From contig OZ024743.1 in the NCBI GenBank assembly GCA_964016885.1, forward strand, positions 335,172,001 to 335,236,000: a DNA stretch of 64,000 bases, in the 5' to 3' direction. How positions within the stretch are numbered: the first letter of the stretch is position 1; each line of letters begins with the position of its first letter. A model generated the notes under the pieces. The model was not told where the DNA came from. It saw nothing but the letters and a program-made list of their open reading frames with translations, and made no database searches. The DNA comes from Eledone cirrhosa (Eukaryota). The position numbers were made by a program, and so were the translations under genes. Shown here one piece after another: positions 1,617 to 60,945 of this stretch.

Positions 1617-1687
<71 letters not shown>

Positions 1688-1812
1688 AGTTATATTTAAA
1701 ATGTTGGGTTACAACTAGTAAATATTTATAACTGATATAAAAGCACTCAACAAGTATTTGGAGTATATTTACGATATTAAATAAATGGAAACTATATTTA
1801 TAAAACCATATT

Positions 1813-1878
1813 TATTTCATTATATATATTTCAGGGATATCATATTAACAATATGTTATGCCTTCTTCAGACAAAATA
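1813..1878 (-). ncRNA. Hammerhead ribozyme candidate (family B, inverted copy)
   Basis: Reverse complement of 3147-3212. Confidence 0.6.
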
Positions 1879-3146
1879 CAATATAGACAGTTTTATAGAT
1901 AAATAGATTTGACATACCGTTCAACATCGACTTGTATTTGAAAAAGTTGATTTGGCAGTGAAAAATTGTAAACAGAAAGAAAGAAAGAAAGAAAACGAAG
2001 AAAAAGAAGAAAAAGAAGAAATGCATGCAACAAAATAGAGAGATGGAAAGATAGATAAAGAGAAGAACTTCATGTAAAGAAACAGAGAGAGATATATAGA
2101 GAGAGGAAATAGATAGAGATAGATATATATAGAGAAAAATAGGTAGTTGAACGACGTATCAATGATACATTTATTTATTTATTTATTTATTTAGCTCTAG
2201 TATTAATGTAAGGGAGATATATGTGGTTAGGAAAGAAACCAGCCGTTATATATAGAGAAAAATGAAAAGTAACCAGACATAGGCGAGGCAGAATTTAAAA
2301 ACCCTATGTTTTAATGTAGAAATATTAGTTCGTATAAAAACCAGGCACTATAATGTAAATATCAGTATTCCTGAATGAGACACGTATCTATAATGTGTGA
2401 AAAGTAATGATCTTATGTCTAGTTTTAAAAATTCATATGTTTATATGATAACTACAAACATCGATGTGAATTTACGTGATCAACTCTGCAAACCCCTATT
2501 TCAAACGGAGAACATTCTCATTGTGCTATAAAAATTTAAGTATACATATATGTGTATATATAGACATATATATAGAGTCTACATTAATTTTAACAATACT
2601 ATTCTTGTCTTTACTCTACATGATTATCTATCAAGCAGAAATAGAGAACAGATTTCAATATATTAATAAAAATATCAGAAACAAAAACAAAAAATAATAA
2701 TAATAATAATAATAAACAAATAAATAAAATAGAAAACTAAAAAATATTACATATTAAAAATGAAAATATTAAAAATAACCACATATATCTCCCTTACATT
2801 AATACTAGAGCTAAATAAATAAATAAATAAATAAATGTATCATTGATACGTCGTTCAACTACCTATTTTTCTCTATATATATCTATCTCTATCTATCTCC
2901 TCTCTCTATATATCTCTCTCTGTTTCTTTACATGAAGTTCTTCTCTTTATCTATCTTTCCATCTCTCTATTTTGTTGCATGCATTTCTTCTTTTTCTTCT
3001 TTTTCTTCGTTTTCTTTCTTTCTTTCCTTCTTTCTTTCTTTCTTTCTTTCTGTTTACAATTTTTCACTGCCAAATCAACTTTTTCAAATACAAGTCGATG
3101 TTGAACGGTATGTCAAATCTATTTATCTATAAAACTGTCTATATTG

Positions 3147-3212
3147 TATTTTGTCTGAAGAAGGCATAACATATTGTTAATATGATATCCCTGAAATATA
3201 TATAATGAAATA
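3147..3212 (+). ncRNA. Hammerhead ribozyme candidate (AUA triplet)
   Basis: tattttgt CTGAAGA agg...cct GAAAT atat ATA atgaaata; stem I pairs with two G-U wobbles. Confidence 0.6.
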
Positions 3213-3253
3213 AATATGGTTTTATAAATATAGTTTCCATTTATTTAATATCG

Positions 3254-7610
<4,357 letters not shown>

Positions 7611-12208: not shown

Positions 12209-12251
12209 ACAGTCCTGATGAAGGGTAATGGCTCAGAAACATGTTGATTGT
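12209..12251 (+). ncRNA. Hammerhead ribozyme (canonical core, GUU triplet)
   Basis: acagtc CTGATGA agggtaatggctca GAAAC at GTT gattgt; 6-bp stem I; ~125 nt upstream of a TA tract. Confidence 0.75.
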
Positions 12252-22944: not shown

Positions 22945-25125
22945 TTTGTATTGCACCATAGAGCATGTGTGTTTACGTGTGTCATTGTGTTTATATGTGG
23001 GTAGAGATGTGTGCTGATGTAGGTATGTATGTTGACGTGTGTATGTTGTGGGTTCGTCTTAGGGAGAAGTGTTTAGACGGGGGTCCGTATTTGTTAATGA
23101 AGTAAGATTCCTTGCTGATGCGCTGGGTGTGGGTGGCATTATCTTTAAATTTGTAGAGGGGAAAGATTCTGAAGTTGGGATGATTTTGGGCGGCACAAGT
23201 ATCAATGTGTTCACTCAGTGGTATTTTCCTGTATTCCCGTATTTTAATTTGGGATCTATGGACAGTCATGCGTTGGCGGAGGCTGTTTTTGGTCTGGCCT
23301 ATGTATTGTTCTCGACAACCTGAACAAGTTAATACATATATTAGATTTTCCGATGCACATGTGAAATTGTGTTTTACTATAAAACGTTGTCCATCTTTGA
23401 AATAGAATTCCGAACCCTCTATTAGGTTGATGCAAATGCCACAGTTGGCTCTATCGCATTTTTTTTACTGTGGGATTCGTTGTTGTGGTTGGCAGTACTT
23501 TGGCATGTGTTAAGATGTTTTTCATTGACTTGGATTGTCTTTTGCTCTTTATGATATCGTGTGTTCGTAGAATTTGGTTCATTCTATGGTCCTTTTTCAA
23601 TACAGGGATGTTCTGGAGGATGGTGTCAAAGGCCTCATTGTTGAAGGGGTTGTGTGTGGAGATGTATGGAAGAGCTTTTAGTTTTGGTTGATTTACTTTA
23701 GGGTGTCTAAGGTCCTGGGTACTGAGTTTTAGGGCACGTTGGATTCCATTGTCAATTAGTGATGCAGGGTAGTCCCTGCCTATGAGTGTGTCCTTTAGTT
23801 CTTGTAGCCGTAAGTAGCAGATGTTTTTATTGGAGACTATAGTACAGATTCTCTTGGCTAAGTTGTAGGGAATATTAATTTTAACGTGTCTAGGGTGGCA
23901 AGAGTTGAAGGGGAGACATTGCTTGGAGTCTGTGGGCTTGTAGTATATGTCTGTTTCTATTTTTTGTTATGGATCTTAATGAGGATGTCGAGGAAGGGGA
24001 GTTGTTGATGGCTGTATTCCATCGTGAAGTTAATATTTGTGTTGAGCCCATTTATAAGGGTGTGAAATTCTTTAAGTTTTTCGATGTTTTCGTGCCAAAG
24101 GATGAAGCAGTCATCTATATATCACTTCCAGGTCCTTTCAATGTGTAAGTGGAGGGTGTTTCCAAATTTGTTTAGGACTTTAGTGTAGAGGGTGATTTCC
24201 AGGTATCCCATGACTAGCTTGGCATAAGTAGGGGCTGTTTTCGTTCCCATAGCGGTCCCAGATTTCTGCCTGTAGGGTTTGTTATTGAAAACGAAGTAAT
24301 TGTTCTCCAAGATAAATTTGAGTCCCTCTATCACGAATTCTGTTTTGATGCGTTGTGGGAGTTCATTGTGGAAATTATCCAGCCAGAATTGGATAGCTTC
24401 TATTCCTAGGTTGTGGGGGATGTTGGAGTATAGGTTGACTACATCCAACGTCACTAGTAGGATTTGTTCAGAAAGTGGCATATTAGGGAGGTGATTGAGC
24501 ATATCTAGGTCGTCCCTTATATAGCTTTTGATGTGCTTGAGGAAGGGTTTGAGAAGGGTATCAATGAAGTTGCTAAGACGGTGCGTTTCGCAAGCGGGGC
24601 CTGCTATTATAGGTCTTAATTTGAGATCATTGGGTGAGGGGACATTGATGACTATGTCTGTGGCTTCCTTGCAAGCCTTACTTATTGATTCGCTTTTATG
24701 TACTTTAGGGATACCGTAGAAAAGGCTGGATTTACTTGTGAAGTCTGTGATGAAGCTGAATTCCTTGTTAGTGAGTCCTTCTTTGTATTGGTTGATTAGA
24801 GTTTTTAGGTTTCTCATAATTTTCTGTTGATTGTAGTGTTCAGCCTTTTCGTAGTATGTTTCGTTTTCCAAAGTGGAGAGCGCTAAGTTGATATAGGATT
24901 CTGTCTCCATTAGGACTACTGTACTCCCTTTATCAGCCTCTTTAATTGTAATGGTTCTGTCGGTTTTTAATCTATTTAATTCTTCCCATTATTTCTTGTT
25001 GAGGTTTGGCTTGTGTTTTTGTCTGTGCAAGTGTTGGTAAGGGAAGTTTGTGATGTGTTCACAGAATTCGTCCAGGATTTTATTTCTACCTTTTGAAGGG
25101 GTGTAATTGCTTCTATTTCTGGCTA
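22945..25125 (-). mobile_element. Penelope-like retroelement (Neptune-type), RT plus C-terminal GIY-YIG, disrupted
   Basis: RT motifs FYGIPKVHK, LRPII, LDVVNLYSNIPH, QKSGTAMGT, YIDD, LPFLD; Cys-rich linker CDRANCGIC; GIY-YIG NLIYVLTCSGCREQYIGQT; stops and frameshifts. Confidence 0.93.
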
Positions 25126-25137
25126 ATATATATATAT

Positions 25138-26581
25138 ATAAGTATGTACACGTACATACATATATGTTTACAGACGTACAGTAGTATGTATATATATATC
25201 TATACATACATGCACACATATATATATGTACGTATGGACTCACCGAACGTTTATTATAATGCTCGGTGTGTTCGTAAACAAACATCCCGTATTAAGTCGT
25301 AGTGTCCAGCAACCATCGTTGCTCGTTTGTTCAAGAATGACAAAGGAACGCTGTACTAGTTTCAAGTTTATTAGCTATTGTCAGCAGCGTAAACCTTCCT
25401 GCCAGATTGTTGAACGTATATACTTAGCTTATACATATTAACTGCTGAGTAGCCCAATTTGCATATCGAGTGGGTTAATCGGCCGGGTGGACCGAAAACG
25501 ATACACGGAAAAAATGAAACGAAATTTCATTTCCCACTCTTAGTACGGCTGTTACTTAAATATAAGTATGTACGCGTACATACATATATGTTTACAGACG
25601 TACAGTAGTATGTATATATATATACATACATGCACACATATATATATATGTACGTATGGATTCACCGAACATTTATATTATAATGCACAGTGTGTTCGTA
25701 AACAAACATCCCGTATTAAGCCGTAGTTTCCAGCAACCATCGTTGCTCGTTTGTTCAACACTGACAAAGGAACGCTGTACTAGTTTCAAGCTTATTAGCT
25801 ATCGTCAGCAAGGTAAGTATATACGTTCAACAATCTGGCAGGAAGGTATACGTTGCTGACGATAGCTAATAAGCTTGAAACTATTACAGCGTTCCTTTGT
25901 CAGTGTTGAACAAACGAGCAACGATGGTTGCTGGACACTACGGCTTAATACGGGATGTTTGTTTACGAACACACCGAGCATTATAATAAATGTTCGGTGA
26001 ATCCATACGTACATATATATATATGTGTGCATGTATATATATATATACATACTACTGTACGTCTGTATACATATATGTATGTACGTGTACATACTTATAT
26101 TTAAGTAACAGCCGTACTAAGAGTGGGAAGTGAAATTTCGTTTCATTTTTTCCGTTCATCGTTTTCGGTGCACCCGGCCGATTAACCCACTCGATATGCA
26201 AATTGGGCTACTCAGCCGTTAATATGCATAAGGTAAGTATATACGTTCAACAATATGGCAGGAAGGTATACGCTGCTGACGATATCTAATAAGCTTGAAA
26301 CTAGTATAGCGTTCCTTTGTCAGTGTTGAACAAACGAGCAACGATGGTTGCAGGACACTACGGCTTAATACGGAATGTTTGTTTACGAACACACAGAGCA
26401 TTATAATAAATGTTCGGTGAATCTATACGTACATATATATATGTGTGCATGTATGTATATATATATACATACTACTGTCTGTACGTCTGTATATATATAT
26501 ATATGTATGTACGTGTACATACTTATATTTAAGTAACAGCCGTACTAAGAGTGGGAAATGAAATTTCGTTTCATTTTTTCC

Positions 26582-26585
<4 letters not shown>
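25138..26585. mobile_element. HHR array, family D: ~420-bp units, about 1.6 copies on minus then 1.8 copies on plus, head-to-head
   Basis: Direct repeats 25140/25564 and 25811/26231; inversion junction at ~25810; TA-flanked; HHR in each unit (25348-25390 -, 25772-25810 - truncated, 25850-25892 +, 26270-26312 +). Confidence 0.9.
26270..26312 (+). ncRNA. Hammerhead ribozyme (family D)
   Basis: Consensus of the four copies: acgctg CTGACGA t agct aata agct t GAAAC ta GTA cagcgt; this copy has minor substitutions. Confidence 0.85.
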
Positions 26586-26623
<38 letters not shown>

Positions 26624-28648: not shown

Positions 28649-29375
28649 TTATTTAGTGTTTTTTCCTGAATTTTGCGAGGCTTGGAATGTAGACAAAGCT
28701 TTATGAAGGCAGTTTGAGAATAATTCACTTTTTGTGTTAATTAAGTTTTCATAAATAGTCATTATTAATAGAGTCTCCTTTATGCAGAGGTTGCAGCTAA
28801 TTGATATAGGTGCGTTCGTATATATTTTACTATTACAAAGCTTCGTCCAAAATATCGAGTATTTAAAATGTTTGTCTTTTAATGGCCATATAAGTTGTGA
28901 TAAAGAATTCGAAGACTTCCTATTAAAATTCGAAAATGAGAATTTGTGATTCGCAAATCTCGATTTAAATGTCAAAGAGGTTGCTCCTATGTAGTTGTAT
29001 GTGTTGTTATTTGTTTTTACTGTGCATTTATACACCAGATTTCTATCCAGACAATTATTTTGCAAAGGGCAATCTGGTTTATTTCTACAATTACATTTCG
29101 ATTTATTATTATTTATATTAACACTATTATTAATAGCATTATGTTGATCTTGGTTTAGAATTATACTATTTAGTTTAGCGATGTTTTGGGCCATATTCAT
29201 AGTTGTAGAATAAGACAGTTTAATTGTGTGTCTATTAAATATGGAGTGGTATTTATGTTGACTAGGGAAGGAATTATCTAAAGCTCTAAAAAATAGATTA
29301 GCTATTGGTGTTCTTACTGCTACAGAAGCAACGGGGTGGGGCGCAAACCATATAACTGATTTAGTTCTGGTTCTT
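28649..29375 (-). mobile_element. PLE fragment (Nematis-like): RT thumb end plus GIY-YIG
   Basis: VIWFAPP...FP...IFNRHTIKLSYS; CNCRNKPDCPLQNNCL; LVYKC...YIGATSLTFKSRFANH; CNLCIKE. Confidence 0.88.
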
Positions 29376-29418
29376 TTCCCCGATTTCTTCCCGTACAGGT
29401 GTTTGAATTATAATTATT

Positions 29419-31680: not shown

Positions 31681-32703
31681 CGGTGGATACCCGATTGGGA
31701 AATATATATATATATATATATATAAACAATTAAGTTAAAGATGTACATCCATATATGTATACTGAAATACTAGTATGTATATGAATACACACACGTATAC
31801 ATATGTAGATGTACCAATTTTTTTTCAGTGGTCACTTTACTGTGAGTGGCCAGCTATTCTGTATGTAAACAAACAGACAAACCGGTTTTTAGAGTCATAC
31901 TGGTTTTTGAGGAAACACCTATCCTCTATTCTCCAGAAAGCCAGACAAGGAATATTGAACTAGTTTCGTTGTTGTTACAACTCATCAGCAATATTTACCT
32001 AACTTCCGGCCTCTCTAGAGAATCGTAAAAGCACATATCGTTATATGCTTTTTCTATGAAAATTAGTAGTGGGCAGACTAATTTGCATAGAGTGTGAGTA
32101 TGTACCGGTTCAACGGAGACGATAAAAACAAATAACGAAACGAAATTAAATTTTGTTTCGTTTGTAACTCACTTTTGTATGACTGACGCTTAAACAATTA
32201 AGTTAAAGATGTACATCGATATATGTATACTGAAATACTAGTATGTATATGAATACACACACGTATACATATGTAGATGTACCAAGTTTTTTTCACTGGT
32301 CACTTTACTGTGAGTGGCCAGCTATTCTGTATGTAAACACACAGACAAACCGGTTTTTAGAGTCATACTGGTTTTTGAGGAAACACCTTTCCTCTATTCT
32401 CCAGAAAGCCAGACAAGGAATATTGAACTAGTTTCGTTGTTGTTACAACTCATCAGCAATATTTACCTATCTTCCGGCCTCTCTAGAGAATCGTAAAAGC
32501 ACATATCGTTATATGCTTTTTCTATGAAAATTAGTAGTGGGCAGACTAATTTGCATAGAGTGTGAGTATGTACCGGTTCAACGGAGACGATAAAAACAAA
32601 TAACGAAACGAAATTAAAAGTGAGTTACAAACGAAACAAAATTTAATTTCGTTTCGTTATTTGTTTTTATCGTCTCCGTTGAACCGGTACATACTCACAC
32701 TCT

Positions 32704-32711
32704 ATGCAAAT
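32704..32711 (+). promoter_or_regulatory. Octamer motif ATGCAAAT upstream of the HHR (also at 33170, 33638, 26196; reverse at 32081, 32549, 25457)
   Basis: Exact octamer at a homologous position in two diverged HHR families; function is inferred only. Confidence 0.4.
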
Positions 32712-32796
32712 TAGTCTGCCCACTACTAATTTTCATAGAAAAAGCATATAACGATATGTGCTTTTACGATTCTCTAGAGAGGCCGGAAGATAGGTA

Positions 32797-32841
32797 AATA
32801 TTGCTGATGAGTTGTAACAACAACGAAACTAGTTCAATATT
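32797..32841 (+). ncRNA. Hammerhead ribozyme (family E representative)
   Basis: aatattg CTGATGA gttg taacaa caac GAAAC ta GTT caatatt; perfect 7-bp stem I; palindromic AACTAGTT. Confidence 0.9.
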
Positions 32842-34065
32842 CCTTGTCTGGCTTTCTGGAGAATAGAGGAAAGGTGTTTCCTCAAAAACCAGTATGACTC
32901 TAAAAACCGGTTTGTCTGTGTGTTTACATACAGAATAGCTGGACACTCACAGTAAAGTGACCAGTGAAAAACTTGGTACATCTACATATGTATACGTGTG
33001 TGTATTCATATGCATACTAGTATTTCAGTATACATATGTGGATGTACATTTTTAACTTAATTGTTTAAGCGTCAGTCATACAAAAGTGAGTTACAAACGA
33101 AACAAAATTTAATTTCGTTTCGTTATTTGTTTTTATCGTCTCCGTTGAACCGGTACATACTCACACTCTATGCAAATTAGCCTGCCCACTACTAATTTTC
33201 ATAGAAAAAGCATATAACGATATGTGCTTTTACGATTCTCTAGAGAGGCCGGAAGATAGGTAAATATTGCTGATGAGTTGTAACAACAACGAAACTAGTT
33301 CAATATTCCTTGTCTGGCTTTCTGGAGAATAGAGGAAAGGTGTTTCCTCAAAAACCAGTATGACTCTAAAAACCGGTTTGTCTGTGTGTTTACATACAGA
33401 ATAGCTGGCCACTCACAGTAAAGTGACCAGTGAAAAAAACTTGGTACATCTACATATGTATACGTGTGTGTATTCATATACATACTAGTATTTCAGTATA
33501 CATATATGGATGTACATCTTTAACTTAATTGTTTAAGCGTCAGTCATACAAAAGTGAGTTACAAACGAAACAAAATTTAATTTCGTTTCGTTATTTGTTT
33601 TTATCGTCTCCGTTGAACCGGTACATACTCACACTCTATGCAAATTAGTCTGCCCACTACTAATTTTCATAGAAAAAGCATATAACGATATGTGCTTTTA
33701 CGATTCTCTAGAGAGGCCGGAAGATAGGTAAATATTGCTGATGAGTTGTAACAACAACGAAACTAGTTCAATATTCCTTGTCTGGCTTTCTGGAGAATAG
33801 AGGAAAGGTGTTTCCTCAAAAACCAGTATGACTCTAAAAACCGGCTTGTCTGTGTGTTTACATACAGAATAGCTGGCCACTCACAGTAAAGTGACCAGTG
33901 AAAAAAACTTGGTACATCTACATATGTATACGTGTGTGTATTCATATACATACTAGTATTTCAGTATACATATATGGATGTACATCTTTAACTTAATTGT
34001 TTAAGCGTCAGTCATACAAAAGTGAGTTACAAACGAAACAAAATTTAATTTCGTTTCGTTATTTG

Positions 34066-34106
<41 letters not shown>

Positions 34107-46989: not shown

Positions 46990-49322
<2,333 letters not shown>

Positions 49323-49325
49323 GGT

Positions 49326-49570
49326 TGAATCAGTGATGCATCAAAACACAATTTATTATCATATTACATATGTTTCTCCGACGATCAGCTCAAGGCAGGA
49401 TCTATTACAGACCAAACCTGACTTGCATTCGCAAGGTCCTCAGATAATCGGATGAAATGCTTTGAAAGCGCAAAATATAAATTGTTTTGATGCATCACTG
49501 ATTCTTCGTTATCTATAATAATACACTCTGCTCTGCGCGAGTATGGAGTGCTCAAACGGTATACCGCCTA
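49326..49570. mobile_element. Second insertion of HHR family G, abutting the Tigger start codon
   Basis: Homologous to 42602-42922; minus-strand HHR at 49361-49447; short inverted arm gaatcagtgatgcatcaaaac. Confidence 0.75.
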
Positions 49571-56813: not shown

Positions 56814-57245
56814 AAGGCGGGTAAAATTCCCGAGATCCATGGACGAGTTCTCTCCAGCGGTCTCTGTCCCTCATTATCGCTGCCATATCCTGCATCTCCA
56901 ACAGACCAGTGTCTGTCCTTAGGGCATCAACACATGTTAACCTTGGTCTTCCTCTTCTAGTGTGTCCATGTAGGGGCTCCCAAAGGAGCACTGAGTGCAA
57001 TGTCAACTCTGGATGTCGGTGAGCATGTCCAGCCAACCTCAGTCTCCTCTGTGTCACTTTTGAGCTGACTTTTGGGATGCTCCCATACAGCTCTGAGTTT
57101 TTCATCCTCAGTGTATACTGATTAATGTTCAGAGCCATCCTCAGCATTCTCGTGTAGCACCCATCCACCATCTGAGTGAGTCTCTTGGTCAGTGTCCAAG
57201 TCTCAGACCCATACAGCAGCACAGACTCCACTACAGCAATGAAGT
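56812..57245 (-). mobile_element. RTE-type LINE 3' fragment inserted in (TA)n
   Basis: ESVLLYGSETWTLTK...DGCYTRMLR...RRLRLAGH...RGRP...DRDRWR. Confidence 0.88.
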
Positions 57246-57259
57246 ATATATATATATAT

Positions 57260-57888
57260 ATTTCGTTTCTGAATTTGTTTGGCAAGATTCTTTATCTGAA
57301 AACGTGTGTTGAAACCGATATACTTTGGGAGGGTCATGTTGCCAATAAGAAACACACGCACCAGTGTAATTTTCACTTCAATTTATTATAATAAATTTAT
57401 AAATTTAGGAATTTATAAATTTCCGGTTGGTTGGTTGGTTCCACAACCAGATGATTGATTATATATTGTCAAAGTTCTTTCGTGACACATTCTATGACCT
57501 CTTCAGTGACTGGGGATTATTTTCTTTGTTTTTGTGCCACTCCTTTGTTCTGTCCTACGCCATCTTGTCTTTGTGTGTGTTGTGTGCTTAGTTTGCGCAT
57601 GTATTACATCCGGGTGTCTGTGTGTGTTTATATTCGTTTATTTATTCGTTTATTTACATGTTACTAGTTGGTTGTTTGTTCTATGTGCATGTGTGTTTTC
57701 ATTTTGTCCTTAATTGTAAGTTGTGATGTTGCTGTTCCACTCATGTTTTCTATTTATTTGGTTGGAGTTCATTTATGTTTATTGCCTCTGTGATGTGTCT
57801 AAACATTGCGTCTTTTCTGTGTGTAGATACAATTTTTATTTCTATGTTCTCTAATTTACCCTTATGTTCTATTTTAGCATGTTGGTAG
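57260..57888 (-). mobile_element. PLE 3' fragment (GIY-YIG end plus pseudo-LTR with HHR)
   Basis: [31 protein letters not shown]; HHR at 57468-57510: gtca CTGAAGA...GAAAG aa CTT tgac; related to 58115-58700 and 63922-64000. Confidence 0.8.
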
Positions 57889-57913
57889 AGTATATATATA
57901 TATATACACATAC

Positions 57914-57945
<32 letters not shown>

Positions 57946-57958
57946 GTATGTATATATG

Positions 57959-58024
<66 letters not shown>

Positions 58025-58114
58025 TATATGTATATACATACATACATACATACATACATACATACATACATACATACATACATACATACATACATACATG
58101 TGTATATATATATA

Positions 58115-60945
58115 TAACGGCCAATGAATTAGTTTTGCGAGGTTTTTGATATGAAATCGTGTGTCGAAACAAATATTGTTATACTTAGGGAGGGTCATAT
58201 GTGTGTAATAATATTGCCAGAATTAATAACAGAACACACTCACTGTTTGGTTGGTTTTCGCTTTTCGCTCCTGTGTCCTTTATATCAGTAATTTAATTTA
58301 TTCGGTCCTCAATGTTGCCATTGACTGACCAACGGTCAAACATACAGATACAATATAGACACAAACACATATATATAGTTTATCAAAGTTCTTTCGTTGC
58401 ACTTCTGCAACATCGTCAGTGGTACTATTGTTTCCTCCCGTTGCATTGTATTTTCAACGCCATCTTTATTTAGTCTGTTTATATATATATATTTTTTTTT
58501 TGTCATCTTTGCGCATGCGTGTGTGTATATTGTTTTGTTTGATGTGTGTTCGTGATTGGGTGACTGTGTATTGGTTAATGTATTCTATCTTTACTAGTGT
58601 GTGTTTATATGTGTTTGTTGTTATTGTGTATGTGTATGTATTTATTTATCTACTTATTTATTTATTTATACTTCTTTTAGGTCAGTGTTGTTTGTTTAGG
58701 TGTTGTTATTCTATTCATTTTTTCTGTTTAGCCTTGGCCTTCTGAGTTCTATTTCACTGGCCTCTCTGATTTGCCTATCTGCTGGGTCATTTCTATGTTT
58801 AGATATTATTCTAATTTCTATATTGTCTATGTTACCGTCGTGTTGTTGTCTGGCAAGTTCGTATAGTACTGAACCGTTTTTTCGTCCTTTTAGTTCCCCC
58901 AGTGTTGGTCTATCCTTTCACCTATGCTACGAGCTGTCTCGCATATGTATGTTGTTGGCATGTCTCTGCAAGTACCCTCTGTACATCTTATGCTATAGAC
59001 TACGTTTCTGGTTTTACAGTTTATCTGGGGGTTTACTTTACATATAATACATTTCCTATTAGTAGAGTGGGTTTTCTTAAAAGGGTAGGTTTGCTGATCA
59101 GGGTTTTATGGTAGTTCCTGGCTTTTCTACCACCTTAATCTTTAAATGGGTCTTATCAGGACCTCTCTACACTGGTTAGCTAATTTCCCTCCAGGGGTAG
59201 CGTCCACAAACATGACACTCTGGTATCTCTTGTTGTCGTACCATGAGGTGGCTTTCCCTATCTTATGTCTAGCCCTCTCTAAGCTATTCCATGATTTGCT
59301 CCTGTAGAATGGGCAAATTCCTTTCATGTCCAGTTCTATGAAAGTCTTATACTTCTCCATGGCTCCTTCGTGTATGGGTTTAGCATAGTGTGAGTGGAGA
59401 ATTTGGGCTCTCGCGTCTATAGTGTTAATCCAGAGTTCTGTGTCTAATACAGGTAGTCTATTGTTATGGTGTTTGGAAGGGTAGTCGATAGTTACAGTTA
59501 TACTCTGGTGTATGGAATTAGCTATCTGCTGGATGCTTTCCATTGTGCTACGTTCTAAATCAAACTTGTTAGTGCTCTCTTGTGGGGATGTTCTTATAAC
59601 TATATTGATATCGTCTACGTGACGAGAGTACATGATGAGGTCTATGGAGCTCTCATTAAGGAGATATTTAAGTCTCCTTTCCCACCATACCATAAAAACG
59701 TTGGCAACGTCACCAGCTATGTTGACGCCAATGGCTGCTCCCTCATTTTGGATGTAGATCTTCTCGTTGAACTTGAATATGTGACCCTTTAGGATAGTTT
59801 TGATGCTAGCCCCTATTGCATGTGCGACCATTTTTCTTACCTGATCCTTGTTTTGGGGGGTCCGTATAGCTTTTGTCCACCCAATCCACTTTCCCATGGG
59901 AGTCTTTTTAGCCATTGAGGTTATGGGGGGGGGGTCTACCTCTTATGGGTCTACTAGGGCAGAACCGTCTAAGGTCATGGCTGTCTAGGTAGTCAGTGTC
60001 GTAGGTAAGTCTAAGTAGGAGGCCCAATTCGTCTGTGCCGACGTCGCAGAAATCCACCTCACTCTCAATGATCATCTCCACACATTTTTCCACAGAAAAA
60101 TCAATGTTAATGGATGGGTACAGTGATACCACATCCATGCTGCCTATTATGCAGTTGGATAGGTTCCTGTTTTTGTTGCACTCACTGATTCTGCTGAGGA
60201 GGTCCTCTGTACTGACACATACATCTGGATACATCTTGATTATGGGGCGTATAACCATTGAGAGGAAGTAGGAGATCCTGTAGTTGCTAGCTATATTTGC
60301 TCCGCATACAGGTCTTGTTGGTGGTCCTGTTGTCGGGTCGTCGACTGAGTTGTGGTCTTTGCGGAGCCCATACAAGGGTGGTATGCCATTGTTAGACACC
60401 TGGAAGTTGTTGGCAGTGCGTCTGCTTGTCTTTAGGATGTCGGTCCACATCATCATGTGAGCGTTGAGGATTTTCTCTCTCCCATCATGTATTTGCTGTG
60501 CCATTTCGCTCGTGTTGATGCTGTGGGGTTGCATAGCCTTGATGTAGTTCGGCATGCTATCTATTGAAATCTTACCAGACTTATCCGTGGGTAGGCATAC
60601 TACCTCGCCATCCCTTGTGCGCTGTTGGGCTAACCAAGCCTTCTACAGGTTTCCTCCCAAGTTGTTGGACCTCTGGTCTGCTCTGTCTCTTAGTAACCCG
60701 GTCTACTATTTGTCTAATCTTATTTCTAGCTATGGTGAACTGTGCCTCTGTCTCGTCATCTATTTGTTGTGGTATTCAAACTCTTTTGTTAAAGGGTAAC
60801 CTCGTAGGATAGATATTACCAATCTTATATGTTTTGTCAGCTGGGTTGAAGAATAGTTTCTCTACGGTTTTGTCATTATATCTATCGTCATAGTTGTGTG
60901 TGTTGATATTATTGTTATTATGTTGGTTGTTGTTGTTCCTATCAA
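58115..60945 (-). mobile_element. Penelope-like retroelement, RT plus GIY-YIG plus 3' pseudo-LTR with HHR, disrupted
   Basis: LYGLRKDH, TRPV, GSMDVVSLYPSI, QNEGAAIG, SRHVDD, LPVLD; CIICKVNPQINC, VVYSIRC...YICETARSIGER; HHR at 58381-58424. Confidence 0.92.
58381..58424 (-). ncRNA. Hammerhead ribozyme in the PLE pseudo-LTR (CUU triplet)
   Basis: tacca CTGACGA t gttgca gaag tgcaac GAAAG aa CTT tgata. Confidence 0.7.

Follow-up and report, generated by a model that had tools for sequence, protein, structure and literature searches.

A head-to-head hammerhead array in Eledone cirrhosa: a dispersed non-LTR retrozyme probably inserted by a borrowed Penelope-like enzyme

The window analysed here, a stretch of 64,000 nucleotides from Eledone cirrhosa (contig OZ024743.1, positions 335,172,001 to 335,236,000), contains at positions 31723-34072 an array of 468-bp units arranged as two head-to-head arms. 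The left arm (31723-32618, minus strand) comprises 1.91 units and the right arm (32616-34072, plus strand) 3.11 units. We number the monomer from window position 33301, the first base after the predicted ribozyme cut, and use as reference the stretch 33301-33768 (plus strand), which runs from cut site to cut site and represents the predicted RNA circle. On this scale the outer (RNA 3') end of the left arm lies at position 235, termed site A, and its inner end at 276; the right arm starts at 250 and has its outer end at 304, termed site B. The arms meet at a central junction with a 3-nt overlap or microhomology (32616-32618) within a hairpin region spanning monomer positions 250-292. Compared with the reference monomer, the pieces of the array show 98.3-100% identity. 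There are only three complete monomers from cut to cut, one of which (32835-33300, plus strand) is 466 nt long and carries a patch at positions 109-218 with five markers of an older subfamily. The 69 nt between sites A and B constitute a ‘tail’ (34004-34072, plus strand) that just one of the two outer ends possesses, as described for Penelope-like elements (PMC11167929).

The initial annotation of this DNA had described near-identical 468-bp units with a central inversion, clean TA flanks and no credible open reading frame, all of which hold. The arms lie on opposite strands, the left (31701-31722) and right (34073-34103) target flanks are pure TA, in which the length of a target duplication is unreadable, and the longest stop-to-stop frame within the array is 65 amino acids. 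An ORF encoding a reverse transcriptase (RT) and GIY-YIG endonuclease, the hallmark of autonomous Penelope-like elements, is absent from the array. The arms are built of tandem units, with no internal region enclosed by terminal repeats, i.e. without an LTR-type layout, and the GC content of the family is ~35%. The variant T325A, fixed in 5 of 5 units at this locus, was considered as a private marker and is weak as such because some units of an older array carry it as well.

Five type I hammerheads, the number previously annotated, are all located by their core pattern. Two lie on the minus strand at 31951-31995 (core 31988, predicted cut between 31958 and 31957) and 32419-32463 (core 32456, predicted cut between 32426 and 32425), and three on the plus strand at 32797-32841 (core 32804, predicted cut after 32834), 33263-33307 (core 33270, predicted cut after 33300) and 33731-33775 (core 33738, predicted cut after 33768). 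As annotated, all have a 7-bp stem I and the palindromic AACTAGTT at stem III; stem II is 5 bp long, and the core pattern predicts cleavage after GUU. Elsewhere, at locus L121, 12 of the 12 units having the site carry GUC as cleavage triplet. Since an Rfam scan of the window at gathering threshold returned 0 matches, the hammerhead assignment relies on covariation as well as the core pattern. Among ten aligned segments from the 468 family and its sister family (two rows covering the 3' half only), 7 of 14 stem pairs change on both sides, representing few independent events because the sequences form two related groups, and 91% of the alignment cells pair, exceeding shuffled and slid controls.

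The monomer is highly self-paired, with a fold of -149.5 kcal/mol (z = -9.0 against shuffles; 0 of 100 shuffles as low). In its circular fold stems I and II form with pair probabilities of 0.63-0.99, whereas the value for stem III is 0.0; the loop-III palindrome has a computed self-duplex energy of -6.6 kcal/mol. Folding thus makes it plausible that paired hammerheads would cleave as a dimer, a mode published for hammerheads of this kind (PMC4209133; PMC7229834). In the satellite hammerheads of newt and axolotl described there, helix III is likewise palindromic and weak and requires two hammerheads to pair, and the U-U mismatch at the helix II base of the sister family resembles HHR_Amex2; they differ in sequence and host, and cleavage of the 468 family is predicted only. 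The window copy carries an A272/C284 mismatch in the hairpin that lies between A and B; in L047 and L113 the pair is restored by C284T together with A272.

The 35-nt hammerhead motif occurs in 5,132 exact copies genome-wide against 0 for the reversed control, which excludes a chance origin. The first 100 matches fall into 27 loci along the initial 56 Mb of a single contig, from which a family size of ~1,400 loci is extrapolated; a looser pattern that includes sister families gives 39,203 matches. The confinement of units to satellite arrays at one locus, which the initial annotation had named as the case against its reading, is not what these 5,132 dispersed motif copies show. The family is a real, young and dispersed non-LTR retrozyme.

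The window holds further elements of related kinds. At 25130-26587 lies an array of the sister family, with units of ~420 bp that are ~61% identical to the 468 family, again arranged head-to-head; its arms end at positions homologous to A and B, and its loop-III palindrome is identical. Just 3' of site B, monomer positions ~305-350 (window 33605-33650) are conserved between the two families and include an ATGCAAAT octamer; this stretch is a candidate enzyme-binding or promoter element. Across a TA run the sister array adjoins a broken, 5'-truncated Penelope-like ORF (22991-25120, minus strand) with a weak RT match, a GIY-YIG domain and an upstream cysteine motif. A third, unrelated head-to-head hammerhead element, one arm of which is ~90 nt longer, lies in TA sequence at 1685-3257 and borders a 4-kb TA tract, and hammerhead-like motifs of further families occur at 12215 (plus strand) and 26889 (minus strand). 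Broken mobile-element frames at 28649-29407, 57245-60642 and 47651-49340, labelled by eye, comprise two RT/endonuclease-like fragments and one DNA-transposase-like fragment.

The outer ends of the arms recur across the genome. We examined 65 loci in three sets: 29 from the best matches, including the window locus; 10 new loci; and 26 new loci in genome order, with one already analysed locus omitted. The prediction of A/B ends was fixed before the held-out sets were analysed. Site A falls at monomer positions 227-236 and site B at 298-305, ~70 nt downstream; A/B pairs are found at 47 of the 65 loci, B/B pairs at none and an A/A pair at one, the chimera L044. Set 1 yielded 22 A/B loci out of 29 (one with an internal deletion), the remainder being two with an A arm and a short B fragment, four single-armed loci and L044, a chimera with the sister family. 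In set 2 the pairing was seen at 6 of 10 (one with a deletion), alongside one B end with an eroded end, one A end with an end near 265, one A end with a sister-family B end and one locus whose ends lie beyond the retrieved sequence. Set 3 gave 19 of 26 (four via stubs of 12-14 nt), six single-armed loci and one eroded locus. All two-armed loci are head-to-head with their RNA 3' ends pointing outward. The inner ends are scattered over the whole unit and mostly joined through short microhomology or filler; two B arms, at L052 and L116, stop at site A. Two loci (L044:3317-4900 and L118) combine the 468 and sister families in one orientation; they fail as proof of template switching, being explained equally well by two adjacent insertions and a deletion.

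The right arm in the window starts 14 nt after the outer end of the left arm, a spacing reminiscent of L1-style twin priming that does not recur elsewhere. LINE-1 twin priming places the inversion breakpoint next to the internal priming site and leaves a poly(A) tail. We rejected it for the retrozyme, in which the outer ends are fixed but the inner ends are freely variable and a poly(A) tail is absent.

Target duplications were sought at 56 loci. Where TA runs are interrupted, nine informative loci (L037, L038, L040, L047, L048, L114, L153, L166 and L178-9) have a duplication of 12-13 bp, a count obtained without a formal null, with two of the nine resting on one informative letter and most flanks being uninformative TA. 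The other loci show pure TA, longer matches on element letters or an eroded end, or no duplication. At two non-TA sites, L112 and L117, the duplication is at most 15 bp, microhomology included. Duplications of 35-45 bp noted by eye at L041 and L121 fell away in the systematic search. Extension of both 3' overhangs left by a staggered cut would be expected to produce a duplication of this kind. Contigs from four sequencing runs of unrecorded type neither bridged the window locus nor showed it as an empty site.

Shared variants bear on the template of the two arms. They were tested at 29 two-armed young loci, four having been dropped (one duplicate, three of the older subfamily). In 62 tests a variant that was fixed in one arm was also fixed in the opposite arm; it was absent there in 2 tests and partial in 1. 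Sharing of fixed variants between loci amounted to 583 of 5,008 (11.6%). At 20 of the 29 loci variants are fixed over both arms, and six such variants occur at a single locus only. Non-fixed variants were common to both arms at equal unit index in 2 of 70 tests, at one site, plus 4 in-register tests due to a poly-A length variant carried by every unit but one. None of the 216 junctions across the cut site contains an indel (the cleavage base is fixed as C rather than U at one locus), and the cut site coincides with 0 of 92 inner ends (within 5-6 nt), which argues against jumps between linear monomers. At 16 of 16 two-armed loci compared in set 3, the two arms resemble each other more than they do at least 90% of foreign arms, and the longer an array, the more uniform it is (rho -0.44, p 0.026, n=25); both favour repeated reading of one monomer. 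Counting against one template, position 272 differs between the arms at L113 and L114. RNA editing was considered and discarded, since non-fixed A>G (16) shows no excess over T>C (15).

The initial annotation had proposed rolling reverse transcription of a multimeric or circular ~468-nt RNA from both target ends. As far as sequence comparison goes, copying from both ends is supported by the A/B pairing of outer ends together with the duplications of 12-13 bp. Repeated reading of a monomeric or circular template is supported by the variants common to both arms, by the junctions without indels and by the uniformity of long arrays. Its choice of the window copy as best experimental candidate has to be revised, other loci being more uniform; all-identical loci such as L035, L047 and L176 offer cleaner experimental templates.

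Among the alternatives, Penelope-type two-site priming on an uncleaved linear multimer transcript, with the hammerhead incidental or only regulatory, fares best and is nonetheless unlikely. For a Penelope-like protein in vitro, hammerhead cleavage was dispensable and unprocessed RNA the main substrate, according to PMC11167929, which favours a linear multimer and counts against a circle; a multimer would give seamless junctions too, and one in-register shared variant, at L042, fits it. However, without a monomer step a new mutation cannot become fixed in all units of both arms, as the six single-locus variants are; singletons of the source array would be expected in register in both arms, where almost none are seen, and arms of 11-13 near-identical units exist.

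We give a somewhat smaller chance to later growth, in which short two-armed insertions come first and tandem arrays arise by unequal crossing-over, as proposed for local amplification by Li, Clavereau and Pollet (2026; 10.64898/2026.07.22.740005), who also link retrozymes to pLTRs. Periodic variants shared within the arms of some long arrays (L058-60, L119, L054, L053) do record amplification after insertion, and homogenisation could give long arrays a young look. Long arrays include L119 with 17 or more units, L058-60 with 36 and C1:5738326-5752444 with ~30; these are retrozyme insertions turning into satellites, the first two with periodic variants. As a general explanation later growth would need independent expansion of both arms at many loci before mutation, whereas uniformity increases with array length and multi-unit loci such as L035, L047, L112, L115 and L121 are uniform over both inverted arms.

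Single priming followed by fold-back self-copying of the cDNA, the second end being set by endonuclease resolution at A or B, is more doubtful still. Centres close to symmetry are over-represented (9 of 46 lie within 12 nt, against 2.5 expected), the variants shared across the centre of L047 are what fold-back would produce too, and PMC8557442 ascribes the tail to endonuclease resolution. Against this, 34 of the 46 centres lie more than 30 nt away from symmetry, by as much as half a unit. Which of the two arms is longer varies, 12-14 nt stubs are seen at A ends as well as at B ends, and two RT start sites have been mapped in vitro (PMC11167929). Finally, an assembly artefact or ordinary satellite is highly improbable: palindromic arrays can be mis-assembled and one window unit looks patched, but the same fixed ends are found across 65 dispersed loci, along with target duplications and variants particular to single loci, and the sister family, 61% identical, has its ends at homologous positions.

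The element belongs to a known class, which the initial annotation had left unnamed: the non-LTR retrozymes, for which a Penelope-like partner has been proposed. Cervera and de la Pena (2020; PMC7229834) define the class and show circles and dimer cleavage. As described there and in 10.64898/2026.07.22.740005, animal non-LTR retrozymes share with the 468 family non-coding tandem units of low GC content, a type I hammerhead in every unit, a highly structured monomer, dispersal and duplications of more than 4 bp; in our family duplications of 12-13 bp at nine loci provide the latter, the window locus being unreadable. The 468-bp unit exceeds the 150-450 bp of the first account and lies within the 51-972 bp of the second. 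Co-occurring Penelope-like elements are their proposed partner and rolling copying of a circle their model. Among Xenopus retrozymes 24 of 57 families match known transposable elements (10.64898/2026.07.22.740005), whereas for the 468 family no pLTR homology was detected among the Penelope-like sequences compared. In the main text of PMC7229834 ‘inverted’ and ‘orientation’ appear 0 times, and its supplement could bear on layout; the mostly non-subscription literature available to us in part yielded no description of retrozyme insertions in which two arms have paired fixed ends, a 12-bp duplication or a template in common.

The layout resembles that of endonuclease-bearing Penelope-like elements, for which tandem plus inverted truncated copies, a one-end tail and microsatellite targets, TA among them, are described (PMC8557442; PMC11167929 for Poseidon from Anolis; PMC4209133; PMC7761336; 10.1101/2022.06.16.496473), features that the 468 family also shows. 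Two internal RT start sites with both strands cut and extended (PMC11167929) would likewise apply to the 468 family. In contrast to these elements, the family lacks an ORF, has a tail of ~70 nt rather than 30-40 nt and many short units per arm, and its strict one-of-each end pairing and shared template are not stated for Penelope-like elements in the parts of PMC8557442 and PMC11167929 available to us. MRC1, the Chlamys element of Chlamydomonas, is also non-autonomous, multicopy head-to-tail and Penelope-like-mobilised, but its clade reportedly lacks canonical hammerheads (PMC8557442; 10.1101/2022.06.16.496473); elements of this type usually share 3'-end similarity with their partner, and no such likeness was found for the 468 family.

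Possible partners are plentiful: candidate GIY-YIG-bearing retroelements number 10,597 genome-wide, of which 150 were scored. Two families with a C-terminal GIY-YIG and an upstream cysteine motif emerged among 20 larger stretches; by the features given in PMC8557442 they are tentatively of Neptune/Nematis type. The fixed ends of these two autonomous families lie 63 and 39 nt apart, and their two-ended RT/GIY-YIG insertions, located in (TA)n, pair the two kinds of end in 5 of 5 cases. No sequence link between retrozyme and partner was found among 50 GIY-YIG loci, a small share of the 10,597 candidates, and the best similarity to four Penelope-like UTRs, reached by 7 of 200 shuffles among 12 comparisons, is unconvincing. 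Flanks of the autonomous elements are uninformative on duplication length, and at L100 it does not match.

Taken as a whole, it is rather likely that the array represents a single insertion of a dispersed non-LTR retrozyme, pasted in by a borrowed Penelope-like reverse transcriptase-endonuclease. Tandem copies would be transcribed and the RNA cut by paired hammerheads into 468-nt monomers, which would be ligated into circles; for Xenopus retrozymes the cleavage of only 1 of 9 dimers (10.64898/2026.07.22.740005) counts against this step. The enzyme, likely a dimer, would nick both (TA)n strands ~12 bp apart, as the 12-13 bp duplications suggest, and leave two 3' overhangs. One overhang would then prime at A and the other at B of a common template, in keeping with the recurrent end pattern, and both cDNAs would roll round the monomer for variable lengths. 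Their joining at variable points, as seen in the arrays and mostly by short microhomology or filler, would yield a head-to-head array with a tail at one end. Arrays afterwards tend to shrink, and a few grow by unequal exchange. The two-armed layout with two fixed ends would thus probably arise because a Penelope-type enzyme copies one RNA circle from both cut ends. A Penelope-like protein that cuts and extends both strands in vitro, starts at two sites within the RNA and is predicted to form a dimer is described in PMC11167929.

The origin of tandem and inverted structures in Penelope-like elements has been called an open task (PMC8557442), and Penelope-type copying of retrozyme circles is so far a hypothesis (PMC7229834; 10.64898/2026.07.22.740005). 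We see an even chance that the arrays are a genome-wide record of Penelope integration, in which the active sites of a dimeric enzyme with a 12-bp stagger start one each at two fixed points of a single circular RNA and roll simultaneously. If true, one mechanism would explain the tail, inverted repeat and tandem layout of Penelope-like elements, and retrozyme circles would be actual transposition intermediates. The 468 family makes base-level predictions, namely two start sites, a 12-bp stagger and a single template for both arms, and its non-coding RNA, 468 nt in length, provides a small substrate for an existing in vitro assay. The value of the family lies in this mechanistic footprint, through which the models of Penelope integration and of the circular template become directly testable.
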